This document shows, piece by piece, positions 18,160 to 29,938 of a stretch of DNA of 36,897 bases (its first letter is position 1; each line of letters starts with the position of its first letter). The notes beneath the pieces were generated by a model that saw only the letters and a program-made list of their open reading frames with translations, had not been told where the DNA came from and searched no databases. Made by a program: the position numbers and the translations under genes. Origin of the DNA: Archaeoglobus sp. (GTDB lineage Archaea > Halobacteriota > Archaeoglobi > Archaeoglobales > Archaeoglobaceae); the NCBI GenBank assembly GCA_003978865.1, contig QNXS01000078.1, positions 1-36,897 on the forward strand. Reading direction: 5' to 3'.

Positions 18160-18230
18160 GCCAGGGTGGCAGAGGGGCTATGCGGCGGACTGCAGATCCG
18201 CTGACCCCGGTTCAAATCCGGGCCCTGGCT
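18160..18230 (+). tRNA. tRNA-Cys (GCA)
   Basis: Manual cloverleaf: acceptor GCCAGGG/CCCTGGC, anticodon arm GCGGA-CUGCAGA-UCCGC, T arm CCCGG-TTCAAAT-CCGGG, discriminator U. An oligo-T run lies at 18244-18249. Confidence 0.9.
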
Positions 18231-18240
18231 GGCCCTGGCT
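18231..18240 (+). repeat. exact tandem copy of the last 10 nt of tRNA-Cys (ggccctggct)
   Basis: 18221-18230 equals 18231-18240, read directly from the sequence. Confidence 0.85.
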
Positions 18241-18423
18241 CTCTTTTTTCGCATTCCGATCCCTGTTATAATGTTTGGTTATTGAAGGGAAAGAAGAAAA
18301 AACGGGACTGATAAGTTTTTAGGATAGATTTTCAGCGTTACGTTTTCCTCAATTTAAGCTACGATTATTGTGGCAATTATCAGGAGCACAGCAAGATTCT
18401 GCTTGTACTTCAAAATGAAAAGA

Positions 18424-18462
18424 ATTGAACAGAAAATTTAAGTATTGCTAAATCAATCAACT
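18424..18462 (+). promoter_or_regulatory. promoter block (TATA-like TTTAAGTATT) of the Csa3-like gene; twin of 26051-26089
   Basis: Ungapped alignment to 26051-26089 gives 33/39 identities. The TATA centre lies about 27 nt before ATG 18468, which implies a leaderless mRNA. Confidence 0.5.
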
Positions 18463-18467
18463 GTTTG

Positions 18468-19208
18468 ATGCCAGCAACGCAGATAGTTTTCGTCGGTCAT
18501 CACAAGGAGAGGCTTGTAGAGTCCATCAGAGCACTGAGAGAGTTACCAGCAACCAAAGTTATTCTTGCTATTGGTGAAGAGGAGCTTCCAGGAGAAAGTA
18601 AAGTTAGAAAGATTGCGGAGGAAATAAGGAAAGAGATTGAAACAGTATGGGATGTCGAAACACGAAAAATCAACAAGAGAAACGTGATAAAAGCGGTATC
18701 ACAGCTCATCGAAATAATAAGGAGCGAAAAACAGCAAGGAAGAGAAGTTGTGATCAACGCCTCCGGATCACTGAGAACTCTTGCAATAGCCGGCTACATC
18801 GCCGCATGCGTAACTTCATCGAGAATTTTTACATCCATTCCAAGATACAACGAGAAGGAGGAGGAAGTGGGTATCGAAGAGATTATTGAAGTTCCAACGC
18901 TGCCCGTAGATTTTCCCGGTGAGGAACAGGTGGAGATAATCTCCTCCATAGGCAATGGCGTTGAATCGCTCGACGAGCTTATACTCAGGCTAAATCCGGG
19001 AATAAGCAAGGGAAGTAGCGAGTTCAGAAGGGAGAGGAGCAGATTGAGCCATCATTTGGCGAAGCTTGAAGATGCTGGTCTGGTTAAAAAGGAGAAGCGT
19101 GGAAGAAATGTGGGGATAGTTCTAACTCCTCTCGGCAGATTTTTGCTGGAAGGTGTTGTTTATGGGAAGGAAGTGGATGAAAAGAAGGCTCTTGAAGAAG
19201 TACATTGA
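18468..19208 (+). CDS. Csa3-like regulator: N-terminal CARF-type Rossmann domain + C-terminal winged HTH
   Basis: IVFVGHHKERL..., VVINASGSLRTLAIAG (compare the Csa3/cas_HTH pattern vNlSGGmR), and wHTH RSRLSHHLAKLEDAGLVKKEKRGRNVGIVLTPLG. Confidence 0.6.
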   Translation: MPATQIVFVGHHKERLVESIRALRELPATKVILAIGEEELPGESKVRKIAEEIRKEIETVWDVETRKINKRNVIKAVSQLIEIIRSEKQQGREVVINASGSLRTLAIAGYIAACVTSSRIFTSIPRYNEKEEEVGIEEIIEVPTLPVDFPGEEQVEIISSIGNGVESLDELILRLNPGISKGSSEFRRERSRLSHHLAKLEDAGLVKKEKRGRNVGIVLTPLGRFLLEGVVYGKEVDEKKALEEVH

Positions 19209-19423
19209 GGATGTGCCGAATGTTCCGGGAGTTTACGAGATTCTGATGCCAAACTCGACTATTTACGCGGGAAAGTCACTGGGAGATGGACTCCTTGATC
19301 ACTTCGGAAAGTTCAGAGGTATTTTAGTGTTCGTACTTTAGAGTTCGATTTATGCCACCCAAAGCGGAGAAGGTTGAAAACAAGATAATAAGGAAGAAAA
19401 CCAACAACGAGAGGATGTGGTGA
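19177..19423 (+). pseudogene. small GIY-YIG-type nuclease domain gene, apparently frameshifted
   Basis: Frame 1 reads VPGVYEILMPNSTIYAGKS...LLDHFGKF and then stops at 19341. A second frame continues SYFRVRFMPPKAEKVENKIIRKKTNNERMW*. Together these resemble GIY...YIG...H...E...N. It overlaps both neighbours. Confidence 0.35.
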
Positions 19424-20955
19424 CTGTGAAAATAACAGTTTACGACGGAGCAACAACCATAGGTGGTAACAAAATCTATGTTGAGGAGAACGGTAAGGGA
19501 GTTTTTCTCGATTTCGGCATGAACTTTGCAAAATACAGCAAGTACTTCACCGAATTTCTGAGCGAAAGGAGTGTAAGGGGGATACACGACCTCATTCACC
19601 TCAATCTCATACCGAAGCTCAATATCTACCGATCAGACTTGATACCCTCAGACCTTGACATGTCTTTCTATCCTAAACTCAACGTGGAGGCTGTTCTGTT
19701 AAGCCATGCGCACGTTGACCACTGCGGGAACATAGCTCTGCTTAATAAAAGCATACCCGTCGTGGTATCTCCAATGAGCATGGCGATTCTTAAAGCTATG
19801 AGGGATGTTTCTGCATCGGGAATGGAGATTGCCTACTTCTCTCCAAGAACTTCTGGAAATGATGAAAGAATACTGATTTCTGAGAGGACGAAGCCGTATA
19901 AGGGTAGGGACTTTATATGTACAAACAAAATATCGGACAAGCTTGCTGAATTCATGTGCTATAAACCGGGGCAGGAGAGTAAGAATGCAAAGAAGCTCGT
20001 TCCCGGAAAGATCTGCCATGTAAGTAATCACAGCCTTTCCTTTGACATCGATGCCTACGAAGTGGATCATTCCATCTACGGTGCTACAGCTTACATCCTG
20101 CGGAATGATTTGGCCATAGCATATACAGGCGATATAAGGATGCATGGAAAGCATGCAGAGAGATCGAAGGGGTTCGTGAAGAAAGCAAAGGATGCGTCTG
20201 TTCTGATTGTAGAGGGGACAAGGACAAGCAGAAAGGAAGATGTTGACGAGTCCGAAGAGATTGCCTTTGAAAACTGCTTGAAGGCTGTTGAAGAATCTAA
20301 GGGGCTTGTTATAGCCGATTTCTCGCCGAGAAACTTTGAAAGGCTTGAGACCTTCATCGAGATTGCGAAGAAGACTTCGAGAGAGCTTGTTGTAACAGCA
20401 AAAGATGCGTACATGCTCCACGCCGTGGAGTGTGTTGATGGGATTTGTAGGATGGAGAACGTGGGAATATATCATGAGCTTAGAGATAAGAGGAACAAGT
20501 GGGAAGAACTTGTTGTCAGGAAGAGGTGGGAAGAGAAATATGTTGACCCTTCTGACATTTCGAGAAATCCCGAGAACTACATACTCTGTTTCTCCTTCTA
20601 CGACATGAAGCATTTGCTGGACATCAAGCCAAATGGTGGGTCCTATATCTATTCATCAAGCGAGGCGTTCAGCGAGGAACAGGAGTTCGATTTTCAAAGA
20701 CTGTACAACTGGCTGCAGGAATTTGGGTTGAGAATTTACGGATTTGAGATGGTGCTGGAGGGAGGAAAGTTTGTTCCGAGTTTCATCAGAGGTTATCATG
20801 CATCAGGACATGCGTCGAAGAGCGATTTGAGGTGGATTATTGAGCAAGTTGATCCCGATGTCATCATTCCGGTGCACACTGAGAATCCGGAGTGGTTTGT
20901 GGAGAACTTTGAGAATGTTGTGGTTTTGGGGGATGGAGAGAATTTGGAGGTTTGA
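19417..20955 (+). CDS. RNase J-like metallo-beta-lactamase / beta-CASP nuclease
   Basis: N-terminal ITVYDGATTIGGNKIYVEENGKGVFLDFGMNF, HxHxDH (SHAHVDHCG), VDHSIYGA, AYTGDIRMHG, and C-terminal GYHASGHASKSDL...IIPVHTE. Confidence 0.75.
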   Translation: MVTVKITVYDGATTIGGNKIYVEENGKGVFLDFGMNFAKYSKYFTEFLSERSVRGIHDLIHLNLIPKLNIYRSDLIPSDLDMSFYPKLNVEAVLLSHAHVDHCGNIALLNKSIPVVVSPMSMAILKAMRDVSASGMEIAYFSPRTSGNDERILISERTKPYKGRDFICTNKISDKLAEFMCYKPGQESKNAKKLVPGKICHVSNHSLSFDIDAYEVDHSIYGATAYILRNDLAIAYTGDIRMHGKHAERSKGFVKKAKDASVLIVEGTRTSRKEDVDESEEIAFENCLKAVEESKGLVIADFSPRNFERLETFIEIAKKTSRELVVTAKDAYMLHAVECVDGICRMENVGIYHELRDKRNKWEELVVRKRWEEKYVDPSDISRNPENYILCFSFYDMKHLLDIKPNGGSYIYSSSEAFSEEQEFDFQRLYNWLQEFGLRIYGFEMVLEGGKFVPSFIRGYHASGHASKSDLRWIIEQVDPDVIIPVHTENPEWFVENFENVVVLGDGENLEV

Positions 20956-20957
20956 CT

Positions 20958-21482
20958 ATGCATTTGTGTGAAGGGAGGTCATTTGTAATAGTGGTATCTA
21001 GGATTTTGAGATATGATGGATGTAAATCTGAAAATAAGGGAGATATTACATTATTCGAAGGGATACTCAACAATTTTAAAAAGAATCACGAACTAAAATT
21101 TGAAGACCGTACTGGAGCACTTTTTGAAGTTCAATATTCTATGGTTAGTTCAGATTCCAAGGGATTTCTTTTAATATGTCTAAACCAATACGGAATTCCA
21201 TTCATTTTTGTTGCTCAGGATCTCATGTATCCCTTTTACAGAGTTGAAATTATAGAGGAAGACGTCAGGAAAACAAAGAACCACGTAATAAAACTATTGA
21301 GGGACTCCATACTAAAAGAATTCAAAGATACATGCGAAATTAACAATCTTCAACCTGAGGTTCTTGGATGCTCCTCTTTCACTGGATTTACTTGGATCAA
21401 TTCCAGAAAGGTAGGTCAAACGAGTATACAAATTCATGTTGCAATACTGTATCGGAAAAGCTTTAAGAACAAAGGTGTTTGA
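20958..21482 (+). CDS. hypothetical protein with no motif I recognise (orphan)
   Basis: GGAGGT lies 7 nt before ATG 20958. The start region abuts the beta-CASP stop (TGA 20953-20955). The mcrB-like gene follows 31 nt downstream. Confidence 0.55.
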   Translation: MHLCEGRSFVIVVSRILRYDGCKSENKGDITLFEGILNNFKKNHELKFEDRTGALFEVQYSMVSSDSKGFLLICLNQYGIPFIFVAQDLMYPFYRVEIIEEDVRKTKNHVIKLLRDSILKEFKDTCEINNLQPEVLGCSSFTGFTWINSRKVGQTSIQIHVAILYRKSFKNKGV

Positions 21483-21513
21483 ACATGGTAAAAATGTTTT
21501 GTGAGGAGTAGGT

Positions 21514-23754
21514 ATGGGTGATTTAAAATTAAGTGATGTTTTTAGGAAATTGAAGGAAAAACACGAGGAAGAATGGAAATCAGTAGAAGAAGAATTCATA
21601 GAAAAAGTTGATGAAATAAGAAACTTCGTAATTGAGAAGGTTAAGAGAGGGGCTTTGTTTACTGAAGAGGATGCGGAAAAAATATTAAATTTGTCCAAGA
21701 ATGTGCCTGAAGGATCTAAGTTTCTTCTTAGGTTCATTGGTAGCGTAGGTGGTGACAAGAAGCAAGTAATCGTGAATCTTCTATCTAATGAGTATTTTTC
21801 AAAACTTATTGAAGCATTAGAAAACGAAAAACATGAGGATATTAAAGCTATGGTAGAAAAAATAATCCAATCGACATATAATGTCAAATATACTACCTTA
21901 ACAACCTGGTTGGCCATCTTTAAACCGGATTTATTTATGCCAGTTTGGGGATTTGAAAAAGAGATGGGAACTCTACCTCAAAGTCTTCTGAAAAGGTTTG
22001 ATGAATTAAATAAGTTCAGAAAATGGTGGGATCTTAGAGTTAACAAATTTTTTGATCTGTTACAGATTTTGAGAACGACAGCAAATAGTGTTGGAGTAGA
22101 GAATATGTTTGAAATGGCATTCTATCTCAACAAGTATCTAGAAGATAAATTAAATGATAGTAACACAACAAAGAGATTCTGGCTAATAGCACCAGGAGTG
22201 GGAGCAGAGTACTGGAATACTTGCGTTAATAGAGGTATAATTTGTGTAGGTTGGAGAAAGGCTGTAGAAAAGCTTGGCAAAGAAATATTTGAGATTGAGG
22301 ACGAGGAGTCATTCAAGAAAAGGGTGAGGAATGAATTTAATTATGGCGACTCTCACGAGCTGTGGAAATTTTTAAAGGAGATATCTGAAGGAGACATTGT
22401 CTTTTCAAAAAGGGGAATGAAAGAAATAATAGGAATTGGTATCGTCGAATCTGAACCATCAATAGACCTTGAAATGAAGTATCCAATTTATAGAAAAGTT
22501 AAGTGGTACAAAATTGATCTTAGCCTAGAATCGCCAAAACAGTTTAGTGGGGCAGTTGCTGAACTCAGGAGAGAAGAGATAGAGGAAAATTCTGAATTAA
22601 AGAAATTAATAGATTCAGTGATTTGTGAAATTCAAAAGGATTTGGAAATAAGTCTGATACTCGAATCCAAAAAGCAAATCATCCTCTACGGTCCTCCTGG
22701 CACAGGAAAAACAAGGTTGGCAAGAAATTATATTGAAATAAGAACTAACCGAAATAGAAAATTTTACGAGTTTGTCACTTTTCATCCATCCTACTCTTAT
22801 GAAGAATTCATCGAAGGACTCAGACCAATTCCAGCTGAGAACGGTGTAAAGTACGTGGTCGAAGATGGGATTTTCAAGAGAATGGCAATAAGAGCGATGT
22901 GTGAAGCTATCAGGTGGCAGAACCTAGATTTGAATCTTGCGAAGTCTGCAGAAAAACTGCTCAAATTGCTTAACGAAATAGAGAGCGGAAAAATTGAAAG
23001 GTACGACGAGTACTACGACAAGTACAACGAAGCGAAAAGAGAGTTGTGGCAGTATCTCGAAATGTGCGACAAAGAGAAAGTTAAAAAATTCTTCAAGAAC
23101 GCTCAACCGTTCTACATCCTGATCGACGAGATAAACAGAGGCGACATCTCAAAAATCTTTGGCGAACTTATAACACTACTTGAAGCAGATAAAAGACTCT
23201 TCGCTGAAAACGAGCTGACGGTGATCCTCCCATATTCAAAAACGAAGTTTGGCATCCCACCCAACCTCTACATAATCGGCACTATGAATACAGCGGACAG
23301 GAGCATAGCATTGATTGACATAGCTTTGAGAAGGAGGTTTGGATTCATCGAACTCATGCCAGACTACGACGTTCTCAGAAGAAAGCTGATTAAAGAAGGA
23401 GATGAAGCAAAAGACATTAAAGAACTTGCAATTAAAGTTCTTCACGCCTTAAACGAGAAGATCAGAAAGCTCTACGACAGAGATCACCAGATCGGGCACA
23501 GCTACTTCATCAAACTGGAGGATTGTAAATCAAAAGATGATGCGATTGAAATGCTAAAGCAGATCTGGTTCTACGAGGTTATTCCTCTACTCCAAGAATA
23601 CTTCTACGACAGCCCGGAAAAGCTCAGCGAAATCCTCAAAGACTTTGTCAGTGTATCTGATGACTCGTACGATTTCAAGAAGATTGATGATTTCACGGAT
23701 GAAGAGTTCGAGGATATATTGAGAAAAATAGCCGGTGAGAGCAGTGGTCAGTAA
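21514..23754 (+). CDS. mcrB: McrB-like AAA+ GTPase with a ~390-aa N-terminal extension
   Basis: Walker A LYGPPGTGKT, McrB signature FHPSYSYEEFIEG, Walker B FYILIDEINRGD, GTMNTADRS, LRRRF. GAGGAG SD upstream. The N-terminus is a helical module followed by an EVE/PUA-like segment (RFWLIAPG...GDIVFS...IIGIGIV). Confidence 0.85.
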   Translation: MGDLKLSDVFRKLKEKHEEEWKSVEEEFIEKVDEIRNFVIEKVKRGALFTEEDAEKILNLSKNVPEGSKFLLRFIGSVGGDKKQVIVNLLSNEYFSKLIEALENEKHEDIKAMVEKIIQSTYNVKYTTLTTWLAIFKPDLFMPVWGFEKEMGTLPQSLLKRFDELNKFRKWWDLRVNKFFDLLQILRTTANSVGVENMFEMAFYLNKYLEDKLNDSNTTKRFWLIAPGVGAEYWNTCVNRGIICVGWRKAVEKLGKEIFEIEDEESFKKRVRNEFNYGDSHELWKFLKEISEGDIVFSKRGMKEIIGIGIVESEPSIDLEMKYPIYRKVKWYKIDLSLESPKQFSGAVAELRREEIEENSELKKLIDSVICEIQKDLEISLILESKKQIILYGPPGTGKTRLARNYIEIRTNRNRKFYEFVTFHPSYSYEEFIEGLRPIPAENGVKYVVEDGIFKRMAIRAMCEAIRWQNLDLNLAKSAEKLLKLLNEIESGKIERYDEYYDKYNEAKRELWQYLEMCDKEKVKKFFKNAQPFYILIDEINRGDISKIFGELITLLEADKRLFAENELTVILPYSKTKFGIPPNLYIIGTMNTADRSIALIDIALRRRFGFIELMPDYDVLRRKLIKEGDEAKDIKELAIKVLHALNEKIRKLYDRDHQIGHSYFIKLEDCKSKDDAIEMLKQIWFYEVIPLLQEYFYDSPEKLSEILKDFVSVSDDSYDFKKIDDFTDEEFEDILRKIAGESSGQ

Positions 23755-25075
23755 TATTGCAACACTTTTCGAATACGAGTCAGTGGATTACGAAATTAGG
23801 GATAAGGATGATGCTATATATGAAGATGGCAAAACAATTCTCTCTCTAACTGAAAAGACGATGGAAGAACTCGAAAAGCTCAACGAAACCAGAAAGTTCA
23901 TCGAAATCACTCGCAGAAAATTAAAACCGCTGAACTACGTTGGAGTTGTCAAGACTGGCGGGATAACACTGGAAATTTTTCCCAAATTCGTAACCGACAG
24001 AAGAGGCAATGCAGATCTGTCAAAAAAGGATATAATAGCCAGAAATCTCCTGAAAATGCTTCAGTACACCCACACGGTAAACATCAGGGAAATCGACTAT
24101 GCCAGTATCTTTAAGGAGAGGCACAGCTTTTTCGAGGTGTTCATCAGCATTTTCGCCAAGAACCTTCTTTCACTCCTGAAGTGCAGGCAGAACAGAGAAT
24201 ACATGAGAAAATACGACGAGCTCAGATTTATAAAAGGCAAAATAGACTTCAGGAGATATACAAATCCGGCGAGACTCCACATAATACCATGCACCTACCA
24301 CGAAAGAGCGGCTGACAACATTATCAACAGAACTTTGAAGTACACAGCTTACCTTATGTCCAGAATTGTAGAAGACAGAGAGAACTACAGAACTCTCCGC
24401 AGAATACTTGATTTACTCGATCCCGTAACTCTTATGCCCGTCACACTTCAGCAGGTTAAATCAATAACCTTCAACAGACTCAATGCCGATTTTAAACCCT
24501 TTATAGACATCTGCAGGATATTTCTCGAAGGTTCAACGCTAACGCTGCAGGCTTCCACCGTTGAAACTTTTTCACTGCTAATTCCGATGGAAAGCTTGTT
24601 TGAACAGTTTGTTGCCGGTGTTATCCAGCGTGAAGAACTGCATAGAAAAGTTTTTGATAGTGGTGCGGAGTTAAAAGTACAGGAATCAATAGGCTACCTC
24701 ATAGAAAAGGATGGGAAAAAATTGGCTGAAATGAGGCCGGATATCATCATCAAGGTTGGTGACGAGAAGGTCATCATCGATACTAAGTACAAGCTTCTGG
24801 ATCCGGAAGACAAGAAGTTCGGCGTTTCACAGCAAGATCTCTATCAGATGTACGCTTATTGTAGAGAAATCAACGCCAGAAAGGCTCTGTTGATATATCC
24901 AGAAGGGCTAAACAAAATTAATGAGATTGGCATAAAAACTCCATTCAAAATGGGTAAGAATAGAGATATAGAACTTTTTGTAAGAACTATTTCCTTGGAG
25001 TACGACTTAACTAACGAGGGCTTTGCAAAATTTGTTAACGGCTTAAGAACAATACTTTATGAGCTGAAGGGTTAG
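23735..25075 (+). CDS. mcrC: McrC-like PD-(D/E)xK nuclease subunit
   Basis: Overlaps the mcrB-like stop by 20 nt. C-terminal MRPDIIIKVGDEKVIIDTKYK (D...D-x-K) and QQDLYQMYAY are typical of McrC. Confidence 0.8.
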   Translation: MRAVVSNIATLFEYESVDYEIRDKDDAIYEDGKTILSLTEKTMEELEKLNETRKFIEITRRKLKPLNYVGVVKTGGITLEIFPKFVTDRRGNADLSKKDIIARNLLKMLQYTHTVNIREIDYASIFKERHSFFEVFISIFAKNLLSLLKCRQNREYMRKYDELRFIKGKIDFRRYTNPARLHIIPCTYHERAADNIINRTLKYTAYLMSRIVEDRENYRTLRRILDLLDPVTLMPVTLQQVKSITFNRLNADFKPFIDICRIFLEGSTLTLQASTVETFSLLIPMESLFEQFVAGVIQREELHRKVFDSGAELKVQESIGYLIEKDGKKLAEMRPDIIIKVGDEKVIIDTKYKLLDPEDKKFGVSQQDLYQMYAYCREINARKALLIYPEGLNKINEIGIKTPFKMGKNRDIELFVRTISLEYDLTNEGFAKFVNGLRTILYELKG

Positions 25076-25161: not shown

Positions 25162-25420
25162 ATGACTGACGTAACCATCTCAATCCCGCAAGATTTCGCG
25201 AGAGTTCTCGGAGTGAGGGTGAAAGAACTTCCCAGACTCGTCAAACTTTACCTTGCCTGAACTCTACCGGGAGGGGAAGATTAGCATGGGCAAAGCTGCT
25301 GAAATAGCGGAGATCAGTAAATGGGAAATGATGGAAGTTCTGGCATCGAAGGGCATCTCTCTGCAGTACGATGAAGACAATCTGAGAGAGGGTGTTGAAA
25401 CGCTGGAGAAAGTGTTATGA
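25162..25420 (+). pseudogene. UPF0175-family antitoxin, frameshifted
   Basis: MTDVTISIPQDFARVLGVRVKELPRLVKLYLA* runs in one frame. Another frame reads LPELYREGKISMGKAAEIAEISKWEMMEVLASKGISLQYDEDNLREGVETLEKVL*. The junction is near 25250-25260. Confidence 0.6.
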
Positions 25421-25900
25421 TTGTCGCTTCAAACTCAAACCCCTTGATCATACTGGCAAAAATAGGGAAGCTGGACATTATAAGGGAGCTTTTTGGTCAA
25501 ATAATAATTCCAAGGATGTCTGGGTAGAAGTTATTGAAAAAGGTAGGGGAAGCCTGGAGCGGAGGAAGTTGAAAAAGCCAGTTGGATTAAAGTAGATGAT
25601 GTTAAAGACAAACTGAGTGTCGAAATCTTAAAAGGCGAAGTTGAGGTTGGCGAAGCAGAAGCAATTGTTTCTTGCAAGAGAATTAAATGCTGATCTCCTC
25701 ATTATGGATGAAAGAATTCCGAGAATTATAGCCAAATCTCTTGGCCTGAAAGTTGTGGAAGACTGGCGATTCTGAACATTGCAGAGAAGAAAGGGTTGAT
25801 TGAAGAAGAATTCGATGAGCTCGTAAAAGAACTCAGACTGAAGAGCATCAGATTCAGCAATGATATACTTGAGAAACTCAGGCAGATGTATGGTGAGTAG
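25417..25900 (+). pseudogene. DUF3368 (PIN-like) toxin, multiple frameshifts
   Basis: ATGA overlap with the antitoxin. Pieces lie in different frames: MIVASNSNPLIILAKIGKLDIIRELFGQIIIP / KDVWVEVIEKG / WIKVDDV...VGEAEAIV / NADLLIMDERIPRIIAKSLGLKVV / ...LRQMYGE*. Confidence 0.6.
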
Positions 25901-26050
25901 ATACCGGAAATTGTATATTTTTCAATCCTAAGCTCGATTGAATCTCAAAATTAGTGAAGATAAAAATGGATGGATGGACAGGCAGTTCTGGTTTAAGAAA
26001 GCGTATAATAAAAGCCTTCGGAGACTTGAACGTTTGACGCGTTAATAAAA

Positions 26051-26089
26051 ATTGAACAAAAAATTTAAGTATTTATGATCCAATCAACT
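26051..26089 (+). promoter_or_regulatory. promoter block of the CARF gene; twin of 18424-18462
   Basis: ATTGAACAAAAAATTTAAGTATT-N8-AATCAACT. The TATA centre lies about 26 nt before GTG 26093, so the track start ATG 26075 would sit inside the TATA region. Confidence 0.5.
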
Positions 26090-26092
26090 ACA

Positions 26093-26569
26093 GTGAAAGC
26101 ATACATCACAATCCTCGGCCGCTCTGTATGGGCTCTCATCAACGCGTACTATGCAGTTTTAGCTGAGAAAGCGTACTATCCTGACATAGTTTACATCTTT
26201 GCAGAAGACATCTACGCAGACCAGCTTGGCAGAGCAATAAAAGGCATAGAAATCCTATCAGAGGAATTCGGTTTCAAGCCTGAAATCAGGCAGGAAATTG
26301 TCAGAGAAGCTGATTTCGTTGAAGCTGTGTTAAAAATTACATCCTTAATCAAAGACCTCAAGCAAAATTATAAGATAGCTATAGACATAACGCCCGGCAG
26401 AAAAGCACTTGTTGCTGGGGCTCTAATCCCCATCACAAAAATAGGTGTTGACCACGTTTTCTACTTGGCAATCAAAACGCTCAACAACGTATCAAAGCCA
26501 TACAAAATGATTCCACTTTCAATTCAGGAGCTCAGAGACTTCGTTGAGGATGCCAGAGTTATGAGGTGA
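26093..26569 (+). CDS. stand-alone CARF-type sensor domain protein
   Basis: KAYITILGRSVWALINAYYAV (beta1-helix) and DITPGRKALVAG (the CARF D-x-T/S-x-G-x-K/R loop). It has no effector domain. The track start at 26075 is an alternative. Confidence 0.55.
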   Translation: MKAYITILGRSVWALINAYYAVLAEKAYYPDIVYIFAEDIYADQLGRAIKGIEILSEEFGFKPEIRQEIVREADFVEAVLKITSLIKDLKQNYKIAIDITPGRKALVAGALIPITKIGVDHVFYLAIKTLNNVSKPYKMIPLSIQELRDFVEDARVMR

Positions 26570-27579
26570 TGCCAGTGAGTGAAGTAGTCGTTTCAAGAGA
26601 TGAACTGCAAATACTTCTCAACATGGAGAACGAGATCAGCATAATGTATCCATTCTACAAGCACTTCCAGCTGCTGACGGCAAAGCCGGAAGAAGATGGA
26701 TACAGGTTGAAGGTTTTTGTTGGTGAATATGATTTTGACAGAGAGGTGGAGCGATTTGACCACTTTGCTTTAGAGATGCCCGGTTATGCGGACTTCCTTG
26801 AGTGTCTGGTAGCAGGAATTCTGAAGTATAAAAACGAGAAGGACTTCATAGAGAAACTCAAGCACTACAGAAGTATGACAAAGAGGGTCTACTTCTGCCC
26901 CGACACTAACGTAATCTACCATCGATTCATCTCGAACTCTTCCCTTTTTAAGCAGAACGAGGTTTTGCTCGTCGATACTGTTAAGAAGGAGATCGAGGCT
27001 GCCCTTAACTACAAGTACAATCCTCATCAAATCTCCGAGCTCAAGAACCTTGTAAAATATCAGAAGTTTCTGCTCGACGAGTGGGTGAACAAGCGCATGA
27101 AAAAATCGAGAAAAGCAGCGTACATCGCTTTGAGAGAGTACAGAAAGGTGAGAGATCTGGCTGTGGAGATTGAAAGCATAGAGAAATCAACAAGAGACAG
27201 CGAGTATAACGACAGGATAATCATTAAATCCGTCAGAAGGTTCGAAAAAGAAAGAAATGCACTGCCAGTTTTGCTGACTGCAGACGTATCGATGGTAGAC
27301 ATCTGCGAGCTTGAAGGTGTTGAATACTTTCTATTTGAGTATCCCCATGTTATAAGTGCAGATTACTGCAATGCTGAACAGATGCTCGAGCTCGTTTACT
27401 GTCTTGCTGTTGTTTTCGGCGTCATCAGACTCAATTCGACTGTAGTTTTTGGAGAGTTCAGGGGGAAAAGCAGGCACGAGGAGCTGAAGTTGAGATTTCT
27501 TGATGAGAATATGGTTGAGGAGTTTGAAAGGGATCTGAGAACATGCAGGAAACTGATGGCTCTGGGGATAGAAAAGTAG
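26566..27579 (+). CDS. PIN-domain nuclease with a ~105-aa N-terminal domain of unknown type
   Basis: Acidic PIN positions occur in order: YFCPDTNVI, KKEIEAAL, NDRIII, LLTADVSM. GAGGTGA lies in the CARF stop region, and GTG 26575 is the likely start. Confidence 0.6.
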   Translation: MMPVSEVVVSRDELQILLNMENEISIMYPFYKHFQLLTAKPEEDGYRLKVFVGEYDFDREVERFDHFALEMPGYADFLECLVAGILKYKNEKDFIEKLKHYRSMTKRVYFCPDTNVIYHRFISNSSLFKQNEVLLVDTVKKEIEAALNYKYNPHQISELKNLVKYQKFLLDEWVNKRMKKSRKAAYIALREYRKVRDLAVEIESIEKSTRDSEYNDRIIIKSVRRFEKERNALPVLLTADVSMVDICELEGVEYFLFEYPHVISADYCNAEQMLELVYCLAVVFGVIRLNSTVVFGEFRGKSRHEELKLRFLDENMVEEFERDLRTCRKLMALGIEK

Positions 27580-28250
27580 CCAGAAAGATAAAAGCAGTGG
27601 TATTTGACATGGACAACACCCTATTCGACTTTGTCGAGGCGAAGCTGAAAGCATGTAGGGCTGTTGTTGAATACTTGGGAGTTGGAAGCGAGGAAGAGTT
27701 GCTGAAGTATTTCTTGAGAGGAGTATACGGATTTGAGGATTTAGAGAACATTGCAGACTACATGCGTGATAATGGAGTTTATAATCAGGAGAAGTATGAA
27801 GAATGTTGTAGAATATACGAGGAAGTTAAGCTCGAAAGTATTGAGCCTTACCCTCACGTGAAAGAGACCCTCGAGAAGCTAAGAGGTATGGGCTTGAAAC
27901 TCGCAGTCGTTACGGATGCGCTGAATGGACACGCTTTAAGCAGACTGCGCAAAGCTGGTTTACTGTATCTGTTTGATGTTGTGGTTTCAGCAGACATGAC
28001 GGGCAAGAGGAAGCCAGAGCCTGACTCCATAAAACTGGCTTTGCAGAAGCTTGGGGTTGATGCGAAAGAAGCTATCCTCGTTGGGGATAGCGTAAGACGA
28101 GACATAGAAGCAGGGAAGAAGCTTGGAATGCTTACTGTTTATGCTGCTTATGGTGACAGGAACTTCTTCGAGGATAAGAGCGGGGAGGCGGACTTTACTA
28201 TTGAGGGTATTTGGGAACTGGTTGGGTTATCCAATCAGCATTCTAAATAA
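27543..28250 (+). CDS. HAD-superfamily phosphatase (subfamily IA-like)
   Basis: Motif I VVFDMDNTLFDF, motif II LAVVTDA, motif III KRKPEP, motif IV LVGDSVRRDIEAG. It overlaps the PIN gene end by 37 nt. Confidence 0.8.
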   Translation: MQETDGSGDRKVARKIKAVVFDMDNTLFDFVEAKLKACRAVVEYLGVGSEEELLKYFLRGVYGFEDLENIADYMRDNGVYNQEKYEECCRIYEEVKLESIEPYPHVKETLEKLRGMGLKLAVVTDALNGHALSRLRKAGLLYLFDVVVSADMTGKRKPEPDSIKLALQKLGVDAKEAILVGDSVRRDIEAGKKLGMLTVYAAYGDRNFFEDKSGEADFTIEGIWELVGLSNQHSK

Positions 28251-28892: not shown

Positions 28893-29938
28893 TCACCTTT
28901 TCAGACCTCCTTCTTCCTTATTTTCAAACAATCTATCTAAGGGACTTTTAGTCCTGAGTATATCCTTGTTACTCACATGAGTATAAATTTCTGTTGTTTT
29001 TGAGCTTTTATGCCCTAACAATTCCTGAATGTATCTCAAGTCCACCCCGCTTTCCAGTAAATGCGTTGCAAAGCTATGTCTTAACGAATGAACACTAGCT
29101 TCTTTCCCTATGTTTGCTTTTTCACAGGCTTGCTCAAAAATTGCCTGAACTGTTCTCGTAGTTATGTGCCTTCCCGGCTTAGCTCCTGTGAACAGCCATT
29201 TTTGTGGCTTAAATTTCTGCATATACTTATTTAACATACCTAAAGCCACTTCTGAAAGCATCGTGTATCTATCTTTCCTTCCCTTTCCACCTCTTATTCT
29301 GATCAGCTTTCTTTCCACATCAATATCCTCAACTCTGAGCCTAACAACCTCCCCAACTCGTAATCCAGCAGAATACATGAGCATTAAGATCAGCCTGTGT
29401 TTGATGTTGGTAATCGATGATAAAATCCTTGAAACTCTTCCTGACTCAAAACGACAGGAAGCTTTTTGTCTTTCTTCGGCCTCTTTATTTCATAAACAAA
29501 TTTCCGCTTTAGCACTTCACCGTAGTAAAACTTTAACGCATTGATTGCTATGTTCAGAGTTGAAGCCGAAGCATTCTTCTTTTCCGCTAAATGATACAGA
29601 TAATCTCTCACATCATCATTTGATATCTGATATGGCGTTTTTCTACTGAATCTCAAAAATTCTTCATTGTAATGCAGGTAAAGCTTTACCGTTCTTCTGC
29701 TGTACTTTCTTGCCATCAGTTCTTTCTCAAGTTTGTAAAGCCAGATGGATGTGTCCACCTCAACCTTTTCTCCATCAAATGCTGACAAAAGATTCTTCAA
29801 TTCTGAGTAAGGAATGCTCCAGTATTTCCTATCAGGATGCCATCTGTAGCCTTTAACAGTTTTAATTTTTGCAATGTAGTCTAGATTGTACGGGAATTTG
29901 ACTATAACGACATCTTTGTCTCCCTCAATTCTTATCAT
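28893..29938 (-). pseudogene. tyrosine recombinase/integrase (XerC/D-like), split by a 1-nt frameshift
   Basis: N-terminal SAM-like domain ORF (29390-29938) and catalytic ORF (28893-29384: AGLRVGE, HSLRHSFATHLL, LLGHKSSKTTEIYTHV). The catalytic frame extends upstream as RILSSITNIKHRLILMLMY, and the frames meet at about 29432-29440. Confidence 0.8.

Follow-up and report, generated by a model that had tools for sequence, protein, structure and literature searches.

McrBC as probable exchangeable cargo in a modular, CARF-bracketed nuclease array of Archaeoglobi

The window analysed here is a 36,897-nt stretch of Archaeoglobus sp. DNA (assembly GCA_003978865.1, contig QNXS01000078.1, positions 1 to 36,897), and the system in question is a long co-directional gene array within it that contains an McrB-McrC pair. 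Canonical McrBC is a two-gene, GTP-dependent type IV (modification-dependent) restriction system, and an initial annotation had placed the array at 18468-25075 and suggested an expanded McrBC variant under a CARF-winged helix-turn-helix (wHTH) regulator. Its domain calls (CARF-wHTH, metallo-beta-lactamase (MBL)/beta-CASP/RMMBL, GIY-YIG remnant, motif-less orphan, McrB and McrC) proved right when compared with Pfam, PADLOC and family models, and its gene boundaries, overlapping or nearly touching along a co-directional array, were all confirmed from the open reading frame (ORF) map and the raw sequence. The outer limit was drawn too early: the array runs past 25075 through a decayed toxin-antitoxin pair and genes for a CARF_m1 domain, a PIN domain and a HAD-family protein, up to 28250.

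The first gene (18465/18468-19208, forward strand; 247-aa ORF from 18465, ATG at 18468) encodes a CARF3-wHTH regulator of the HFX_2341/DUF6293 family within the Csa3 superfamily. Its product has an N-terminal CARF Rossmann domain, with the CARF motif INASGSLR, and a C-terminal winged helix, and matches PF19810 (HFX_2341_N; E-value 8.4e-15, 55.7 bits, cut-off 30), PF22665 (DUF6293 winged helix; 1.5e-8, 35.4 bits, cut-off 27) and, over its full length, the PADLOC CARF3 model (2e-110). The central backbone gene (19417-20955, forward, 512 aa) encodes an MBL/beta-CASP/RMMBL nuclease (Pfam Lactamase_B_2 and RMMBL) whose family is conserved widely among archaea and uncharacterised; its GTG start at 19417 is overlapped by the preceding TGA (19421-19423), alternative starts lie at 19420 or 19426, and its own TGA at 20953-20955. 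MBL motifs 1-4 and beta-CASP motifs A-C are complete and invariant in 20 diverse homologues (HAHVDH, DHS, TGD, EGTR, GYHASGHAS and PVHT, corresponding to HxHxDH, H215, D236, E263, H458/H462 and H484). The MBL, beta-CASP and RMMBL combination and the full catalytic motif set are shared with the RNase J/aCPSF ribonucleases and with eukaryotic SNM1/Artemis, but membership of RNase J or aCPSF1 was rejected, with scores far under the model thresholds (RNase J model TIGR00649, 63.6 bits against 400; NF047419, 44.7 against 820; aCPSF1 model TIGR03675, 23.2 bits against 580). Among solved structures, the uncharacterised EF2904 (2az4) comes closest, as a partial match.

Three further backbone genes close the array. 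A stand-alone CARF_m1 sensor domain (26093-26569, forward; DITPGRK motif, PADLOC PDLC01971 at 3.8e-63), for which GTG 26093 is the likely true start, overlaps the gene for a PIN-domain RNase (26566-27579, forward; PIN_4 at 5.4e-6, and 1.9e-18 to the C-terminal half of the fused CARF_m1--CARF_PIN model). On the fused CARF_PIN model PDLC01973 the CARF gene covers model positions 2-147 and the PIN gene positions 212-445, so that the two overlapping genes are, by their profile matches, a split version of the CARF_m1-PIN effector. The last conserved backbone gene (27543-28250, forward) encodes a HAD-family phosphatase or nucleotidase, which exceeds the HAD-IA cut-off (TIGR01509, 54.2 bits against 29.4) and falls under that of TIGR02253 (2.5e-38, 132.1 bits against 169.75). 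CARF3, CARF_m1 and PIN have no sequence relatives in the PDB.

Between beta-CASP and CARF_m1 lie an orphan gene, mcrB and mcrC. The McrB GTPase (21514-23754, forward, 746 aa; Shine-Dalgarno (SD)-like GAGGAG before the ATG) has an AAA+ domain with GPPGTGKT, DEINRG and MNTADRS, matches AAA_5 (1e-16) and PRK11331 (6.5e-48), and aligns to Thermococcus gammatolerans McrB (6UT3, 3e-83) at GPPGTGKT, IDEINRGDISKIFGEL and IIGTMNTADRSIAL. The nuclease subunit McrC (23735-25075, forward, 446 aa; PF10117 at 1.6e-74) carries a PD...D-x-K site, RPDIIIK...IIDTKYK, that aligns to PDYVV...LDAKYR of 6UT5_G (1.8e-23). Its GTG start at 23735 precedes the mcrB stop at 23754, a 20-nt overlap found identically in locus L001 (labels of this form denote the surveyed relative loci). 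Judged by motifs, PF10117 and gene overlap, the pair is a canonical McrBC member, with T. gammatolerans McrBC as its closest PDB match. The GTPase motifs, the PF10117 McrC with PD-(D/E)xK and the mcrB-mcrC overlap are common to the window pair, T. gammatolerans McrBC (6UT3, 6UT5) and Escherichia coli McrBC; the window pair differs in being embedded in a longer operon rather than stand-alone, and in the N-terminal ~370 aa of McrB (aa 1-379), which match no Pfam family (E up to 5) and no PDB sequence. The sole match in this region is the PADLOC candidate PDC-S02 (aa 221-333); relatives carry DUF8426 and/or EVE.

We surveyed the best 80 of 238 genome loci around beta-CASP relatives, plus further contigs, annotating the fetched loci with profiles derived from proteins of the window and of L001. 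Some 25 distinct Archaeoglobi loci share a recurrent order of CARF3-wHTH, slot 1, beta-CASP, slot 2, CARF_m1, PIN and HAD. Slot 1, between regulator and beta-CASP, holds NurA-HerA-Mre11-Rad50, or RmuC with or without GIY-YIG, or nothing, and in the window only a GIY-YIG pseudogene. Slot 2, between beta-CASP and CARF_m1, holds in the window the orphan, McrB and McrC plus the decayed toxin-antitoxin pair; in other loci McrB-McrC follows beta-CASP directly (L010, L087), follows the orphan (L001, L006, L007), or comes after a TPR protein, optionally accompanied by a class-II amidotransferase and a 125-aa protein (L009, L015, L018, L039). A UPF0175/PIN toxin-antitoxin pair is often present as well, and slots lacking McrBC contain such a pair only (L016), the TPR gene only (L026) or nothing (L023, L027). 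The HAD gene follows PIN in 10 other loci and McrC directly in L001, which reads CARF3-NurA-HerA-Mre11-Rad50-(159 aa)-betaCASP-orphan-McrB-McrC-HAD; L007 reads ...GIY-YIG-RmuC-betaCASP-orphan-McrB, and in L006 two other genes stand between orphan and McrBC. The array is also present in the cultured Archaeoglobus sulfaticallidus PM70-1 (CP005290, 1207280-1228593), in the order CARF3-GIY-RmuC-betaCASP-(TPR pseudogene)-McrB-McrC-(UPF0175/DUF3368 remnants)-CARF_m1-PIN-HAD, and the betaCASP-CARF_m1-PIN-HAD part recurs in Methanomethylicus (L037) and in a Methanobacteriota metagenome-assembled genome (MAG; L086). It is this conservation in many other genomes, and not the short spacings alone, that makes the arrangement more than chance.

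Several slot-2 partners occur with or without McrBC. One is the TPR protein, with a 25-nt overlap between its start and the beta-CASP stop; the others are the class-II glutamine amidotransferase (GATase_4, 1.6e-38) and the 125-aa protein, for which no family match was obtained (L009 4195-5190; L015 8921-10482; L017; L018 6635-8566; L022 from 11568; L026 4117-5364). Two MAGs contain two arrays each (L013 and L018 in CAYSRI01; L019 and L025 in MTMJ01), with NurA-HerA-Mre11-Rad50 in slot 1 of one and RmuC in slot 1 of the other, and the genome of the window may likewise hold a second array elsewhere.

The part of the array that does not vary is therefore not McrBC, as had first been supposed, but CARF3...beta-CASP...CARF_m1-PIN-HAD: some 12 distinct Archaeoglobi loci have McrBC downstream of beta-CASP, and roughly half of the Archaeoglobi loci that carry the backbone have no McrBC. 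Nor is the CARF regulator tied to McrBC as originally proposed, since the units that it heads are more often NurA-HerA-Mre11-Rad50 or RmuC units. Measured against the window copy, McrC identity falls from 82% (L001) and 76% (L010) to 46% (L015), 45% (L018), 32% (L087) and 30% (L006), while beta-CASP in these loci keeps an identity of 64-84%. At 45-52%, the McrC proteins from methanogens (Methanosarcina, Methanoculleus and others) come about equally near to the window copy, and that of Methanosarcina mazei (50%) lies in a BREX island with a UvrD/PD-(D/E)xK helicase and no beta-CASP. On these identities, slot 2 has been filled by three or more divergent McrBC lineages, with a divergence that does not track beta-CASP, and in a neighbour-joining tree of beta-CASPs both slot-1 content and McrBC presence are interleaved; a division of beta-CASP into Rad50-linked and RmuC-linked clades was dropped on the same grounds. 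The discordant identities, the other contexts of McrC and the interleaved tree indicate that McrBC was gained or replaced several times in the slot, as a cassette and not as core, and such repeated capture of a McrBC-type system at one position is notable. We consider it reasonably probable that the window holds one copy of a modular, CARF-bracketed Archaeoglobi nuclease array in which McrBC is captured, exchangeable cargo placed under the regulation of the operon.

The regulatory half of this reading draws on a shared promoter/operator box. A repeat search found a 43-nt direct repeat of 84% identity directly upstream of both CARF genes in the window: box 1 (18420-18462, forward) precedes CARF3, with the core TTGAACAGAAAATTTAAGTA at 18425-18444 followed by AATCAATCAACT, and box 2 (26047-26089, forward) precedes CARF_m1, with TTGAACAAAAAATTTAAGTA at 26052-26071. 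At up to 3 mismatches the core TTGAACAAAAAATTTAAGTA is matched twice in the window, where 0.05 matches would arise by chance. The layout, TTGAACAAAAAATTTAAGTA...AATCAACTA, spans roughly 45 nt and includes a conserved transcription factor B recognition element (BRE)/TATA; 28 distinct instances across the fetched relatives (loci including L001, L007, L009-L027 and L101) give the consensus A.TTGAACaAAAAaTTTAAGTATtat.aAa.caATcAActAtt, then the start codon. Almost every Archaeoglobi CARF3-wHTH gene is preceded by the box, and CARF_m1 only where this gene is separated from upstream genes (the window, L016, L018, L101). It also stands ahead of a divergent NurA operon (L012), of RmuC or GIY-YIG-RmuC (L011, L007) and of a handful of others (L010, L016, L022, L101).

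The A-rich run and TTTAAGTA read as an archaeal BRE/TATA. Because the start codon lies about 22 nt after the TATA across instances (21-24 nt in box 1), established archaeal promoter geometry predicts leaderless mRNAs for the first genes, and the conserved TTGAAC upstream together with ATCAAC between TATA and start suggests that a site for a regulator overlaps the core promoter. Such a box, with its conserved flanking half-sites, stands at the head of each transcription unit. As a sequence element, the box thus suggests a common regulon with leaderless first genes. In all loci mcrB has an SD-like motif upstream and no box, which fits an operon-internal gene, and a search across loci for a conserved promoter upstream of mcrB returned SD-like motifs only. 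In both L010 and L015 mcrC runs directly into the CARF_m1 gene, with an overlap of 4 nt, which places the McrBC cassette inside one operon. The array genes are probably co-expressed, and the distribution of box and SD motifs, together with the gene overlaps, supports co-transcription of cassette and backbone, with a promoter maintained where an insert split the operon.

These observations bear directly on the possibility that the inserts merely hitch-hike, the gap after beta-CASP being a permissive integration hotspot whose contents have no regulatory or functional link to the backbone. The McrBC phylogeny discordant with beta-CASP is what such a hotspot would produce, as are slot contents that vary and include toxin-antitoxin pairs and pseudogenes. 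Composition points the same way: GC content at third codon positions (GC3) is 0.44-0.55 in backbone genes, 0.31 in the orphan and 0.32 in the McrB N-terminus, against 0.27-0.36 in the flanking housekeeping genes, so that by composition the array as a whole appears foreign and, relative to the array, so do the orphan and the McrB specificity region. The array is, moreover, bracketed by a tRNA-Cys gene (18160-18230, 235 nt upstream of the CARF3 gene) and, about 650 nt beyond HAD, by a tyrosine recombinase (integrase) pseudogene (28893-29938, reverse strand) split into a SAM-like N-terminal ORF (29390-29938) and a catalytic ORF (28893-29384). Genes on the left flank are housekeeping in character (PurP, aIF2-alpha, SufBC, Pus10, Adk), and the entire array may lie on an old genomic island. 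Yet the inserts are all co-directional, lie close to or overlap backbone genes (the McrC/CARF_m1 overlap of L010 and L015; a 12-nt gap in L001) and are preceded by SD-like motifs rather than promoters, and the second box before CARF_m1, present where a toxin-antitoxin insert intervenes (the window, L016, L018, L101), implies that expression from the box was kept by selection. We therefore regard hitch-hiking without any link as unlikely.

Adjacency to a tRNA gene is not kept in relatives. A perfect 10-bp tandem copy (GGCCCTGGCT x2, 18221-18240) that follows the tRNA-Cys 3' end may be an integration scar; a search near the integrase for an attachment repeat from this 3' end found none, only the local 10-bp tandem duplication being present.

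The orphan small protein (20958-21482, forward) bears most closely on whether McrBC has been enlarged. Its ATG at 20958 follows the beta-CASP stop after a 2-nt gap and is served by an SD sequence GGAGGT at 20946-20951; the ORF ends 31 nt before the mcrB ATG (21482 to 21514). The initial description of a 175-aa protein with no recognisable motif was correct as to the motif, as neither a family match nor a Pfam match even at E up to 5 was found, but not as to the length: homologues are about 151 aa, and a 1-nt frameshift near 21340 has displaced the ancestral C-terminus (IFNLRFLDAPLSLDLLGSIPER*) into the +1 frame with a stop at 21412-21414, which makes the ancestral gap to mcrB 99 nt. Relatives are rare (17 representatives among 1.84 billion proteins, all about 150 aa), and a metagenome scan with a narrow alignment returned only the L001 contig again. 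An AlphaFold2 model from a 12-sequence alignment reached a predicted local distance difference test (pLDDT) score of 85, a 4-sequence alignment having given an unusable 49.5; a Foldseek search of the model against PDB and BFVD gave nothing under E 1e-3 and no TM-score above 0.42, and weak matches to AdoMetDC-like folds and YwmB were not trusted.

Orphan homologues at 74%, 55% and 44% identity all stand directly after beta-CASP and upstream of McrB, and the 2-4-nt junction with beta-CASP is kept while the downstream McrBC changes. A distant homologue (P0129; L097 4568-14461, also L098 and L099) lies in another defence-island context, between an Mrr_cat-TPR gene and a DUF1156 methylase-DUF499-SNF2 helicase system, and adjoins an OLD/TOPRIM ATPase. 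Further distant relatives are found beside a resolvase (L100) or in unrelated contexts. From these neighbourhoods the most fitting description of the orphan is that of a small defence-island-associated protein, which may be an adaptor.

The expanded McrBC of the initial annotation, in which beta-CASP and orphan would belong to the restriction complex as integral extra subunits or arms, with the CARF-wHTH protein as its dedicated regulator, draws on the tight coupling of the genes (the 2-nt gap and the 20-nt overlap), on the recurrence of beta-CASP, orphan and McrB together in L001, L006 and L007, and on the capture of three McrBC lineages at one site in some 12 loci, which hints at a selective advantage of the position. 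The same survey shows the beta-CASP family to be widespread without McrBC: beta-CASP and CARF3 occur without it in about half of the Archaeoglobi loci, and beta-CASP on its own in Asgard and other archaea. The orphan-beta-CASP junction persists where McrBC has been replaced (in L006 McrC is 30% identical and two genes intervene), distant orphan relatives adjoin DUF1156-DUF499-helicase systems, a resolvase or unrelated genes, and near relatives of McrC are found in other contexts. An expanded McrBC complex accordingly seems improbable to us. Least probable of all, and very doubtful, is that the window copy is a non-functional, decaying relic, as the frameshifts in GIY-YIG, orphan C-terminus, UPF0175, PIN toxin and integrase might suggest, for the disruptions are limited to small accessory genes, the toxin-antitoxin remnants are decayed in A. 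sulfaticallidus too, and the large genes (CARF3, beta-CASP, McrB, McrC, CARF_m1, PIN and HAD) are all intact with their catalytic motifs.

Two of the decayed accessory genes merit description. Overlapping the CARF3 gene is a short ORF with in-frame starts at 19153, 19162 and 19177, part of a GIY-YIG nuclease pseudogene (19153-19423, forward) frameshifted at about 19330 in an imperfect 14-nt tandem duplication. Over its two frames it shares 59% identity (E 1e-28) with a 100-aa gene that is intact in L018 and matches PF01541 at 1.1e-7; the window copy has no Pfam match at E up to 5 even when repaired. The family assignment of this remnant thus holds through its homologue, and an intact nuclease was rejected in favour of a pseudogene in two frames that has lost the catalytic Arg. 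In the toxin-antitoxin pair (25162-25900, forward) the UPF0175 antitoxin is divided between two frames, and several frameshifts interrupt the DUF3368/PIN toxin; A. sulfaticallidus PM70-1 has equivalent remnants (29 aa and 45 aa) at the matching position, which indicates that the decay is old and shared.

The beta-CASP family itself is large, with more than 4,400 matches at 50-84% identity in Archaeoglobi, Asgard archaea, Hadarchaeota, Methanomethylicus and others, the identity between its Archaeoglobi and Asgard members being 50-60%; it occurs without McrBC in Asgard archaea, Methanomethylicus and other lineages. In a few Promethearchaeota/Hodarchaeota loci (L030-L033) beta-CASP adjoins HerA and Rad50, plus Mre11 in L032, and in other Asgard and non-Archaeoglobi loci it stands next to unrelated housekeeping genes or to a further beta-CASP of divergent sequence. 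The latter arrangement, with the two paralogues head to head, was seen in 11 loci (L029, L042, L049-L052, L060, L061, L066, L069, L085), 9 from Promethearchaeota, 1 from Hodarchaeota and L061 from a record titled Patescibacteria-group bacterium. A protein of about 160 aa adjoins beta-CASP in some Archaeoglobi (L001 7992-8471, L011 11475-12032, L020, L022); it has weak FtsZ/tubulin-like GGxG motifs (TIGR00065 at 5.4e-7, far under cut-off), and in L022 its gene carries its own copy of the promoter box.

Several points weigh against reading the array as a regulated unit with McrBC as its cargo. The housekeeping neighbours in Asgard archaea suggest that beta-CASP may serve general RNA or DNA metabolism and not defence. 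The pseudogenes of the window (GIY-YIG, orphan C-terminus, toxin-antitoxin pair and integrase), being several of its small genes, mean that part of the locus is decaying, and the 36.9-kb window contains neither a cyclase nor a type III CRISPR locus. The link between the CARF3-wHTH protein and the box is putative, drawn from their co-occurrence. A BRE/TATA-like element (CTTTAAGAA / AAAAGCTTTAAGAA) about 50 nt upstream of the mcrB ATG (21455-21513), with the SD-like GAGGAG after it, might act as an independent promoter inside the array; no conservation of it is seen in other loci. Finally, the comparison covers the best 80 of the 238 genome loci.

Among described systems, the nearest arrangement in concept is the CoCoNuT superoperon headed by RtcR, and after it the Csa3a repair regulon. 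CoCoNuTs are McrBC-like systems found in superoperons headed by a CARF (RtcR-like) protein, for which ligand-controlled, echeloned attack on DNA and RNA has been proposed; they are bacterial and nearly absent in archaea, and are characterised by an NxD GTPase variant, coiled coils, HEPN and the CnuH helicase (Bell et al., eLife 2024, PMC11090510). In both cases a CARF transcription factor stands 5' of a long co-directional array with an McrB/McrC module and other nucleases, but the CoCoNuT regulator is of the RtcR type (CARF-AAA-HTH) whereas that of the window is of the Csa3 type, and membership among CoCoNuTs was rejected, the window McrB having the canonical NTAD and the array no HEPN, helicase or coiled-coil gene. 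Csa3a of Sulfolobus islandicus binds the nurA-mre11-rad50-herA promoters and controls them directly; it adjoins cas genes, and its activation extends to CRISPR arrays and adaptation genes (Liu et al., NAR 2017, PMC5587795). The Archaeoglobi CARF3-wHTH gene heads the same NurA-HerA-Mre11-Rad50 set, with the box common to both. Strict Csa3 identity was nevertheless rejected for the window protein, which scores 42.8 bits against TIGR01884, under the 60.2 cut-off, and has no adjacent cas gene; no CRISPR array was detected in the window and no cas-family match among the ORFs scanned. The box sequence seems unrelated to that of Csa3a, a statement with no detailed comparison behind it. HFX_2341 of Haloferax mediterranei, a transcriptional repressor and global regulator whose targets include cas genes (Turgeman-Grott et al., 2024, PMC11434293), is the founding member of the Pfam family to which the window regulator belongs (HFX_2341_N with the DUF6293 winged helix), but no link to beta-CASP, McrBC or PIN is reported for the haloarchaeal protein. 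The initial annotation did not recognise the architecture as described, and we found neither the CARF3...betaCASP...CARF_m1-PIN-HAD array nor the box in the literature, in a search that did not cover the 2020 CARF classification; the 2014 CARF paper does not describe CARF3 or CARF_m1 neighbourhoods.

A working model can be proposed on these precedents. As Sulfolobus Csa3a and HFX_2341 would lead one to expect, the CARF3-wHTH protein would bind the box overlapping the core promoter, its occupancy changing when the CARF domain binds a nucleotide signal, which might be a cyclic oligoadenylate or another nucleotide-derived ligand, so that the whole gene set would be switched together. McrBC would then cut modified invader DNA, beta-CASP would process the resulting ends (elsewhere together with Mre11-Rad50/HerA-NurA or RmuC), CARF_m1-PIN would add ligand-gated RNA cleavage, and HAD would remove nucleotide products or the ligand. 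The earlier suggestion of an RNA-targeting arm under CARF control therefore has some merit, although the candidate for that arm is the CARF_m1-PIN pair downstream of the stretch first annotated. More tentatively, and at odds that we would place below even, Archaeoglobi, and in part Methanomethylicus and other archaea, may possess an undescribed CARF-gated regulon for nucleic-acid degradation, in which a Csa3-family sensor-repressor and CARF_m1-PIN bracket beta-CASP, one box is common to all units, DNA-end modules (Mre11-Rad50-HerA-NurA, RmuC/GIY-YIG, McrBC) are interchangeable and the orphan and TPR proteins act as beta-CASP adaptors, coupling second-messenger signalling to double-strand-break processing and type IV restriction. 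Such a regulon could also feed CRISPR adaptation.

For annotation, the locus carries a caution, in that tight operonic packing round McrBC alone does not define a new McrBC subtype. The backbone and the promoter box, which reach beyond the stretch first delimited, are the more interesting objects, and they offer as targets a widespread archaeal beta-CASP, a four-gene betaCASP-CARF_m1-PIN-HAD module and a rare orphan family at the entry to a defence cassette. Experiments are feasible because the cultured A. sulfaticallidus PM70-1, with a complete genome, carries the array. If the box is the operator of the CARF3-wHTH protein, one nucleotide-sensing regulator would coordinate a restriction enzyme, DNA-end-processing nucleases and a ligand-gated RNase in these archaea, and both the CRISPR-repair link of Csa3a and the idea of the bacterial RtcR-CoCoNuT superoperon would extend to a canonical archaeal McrBC.

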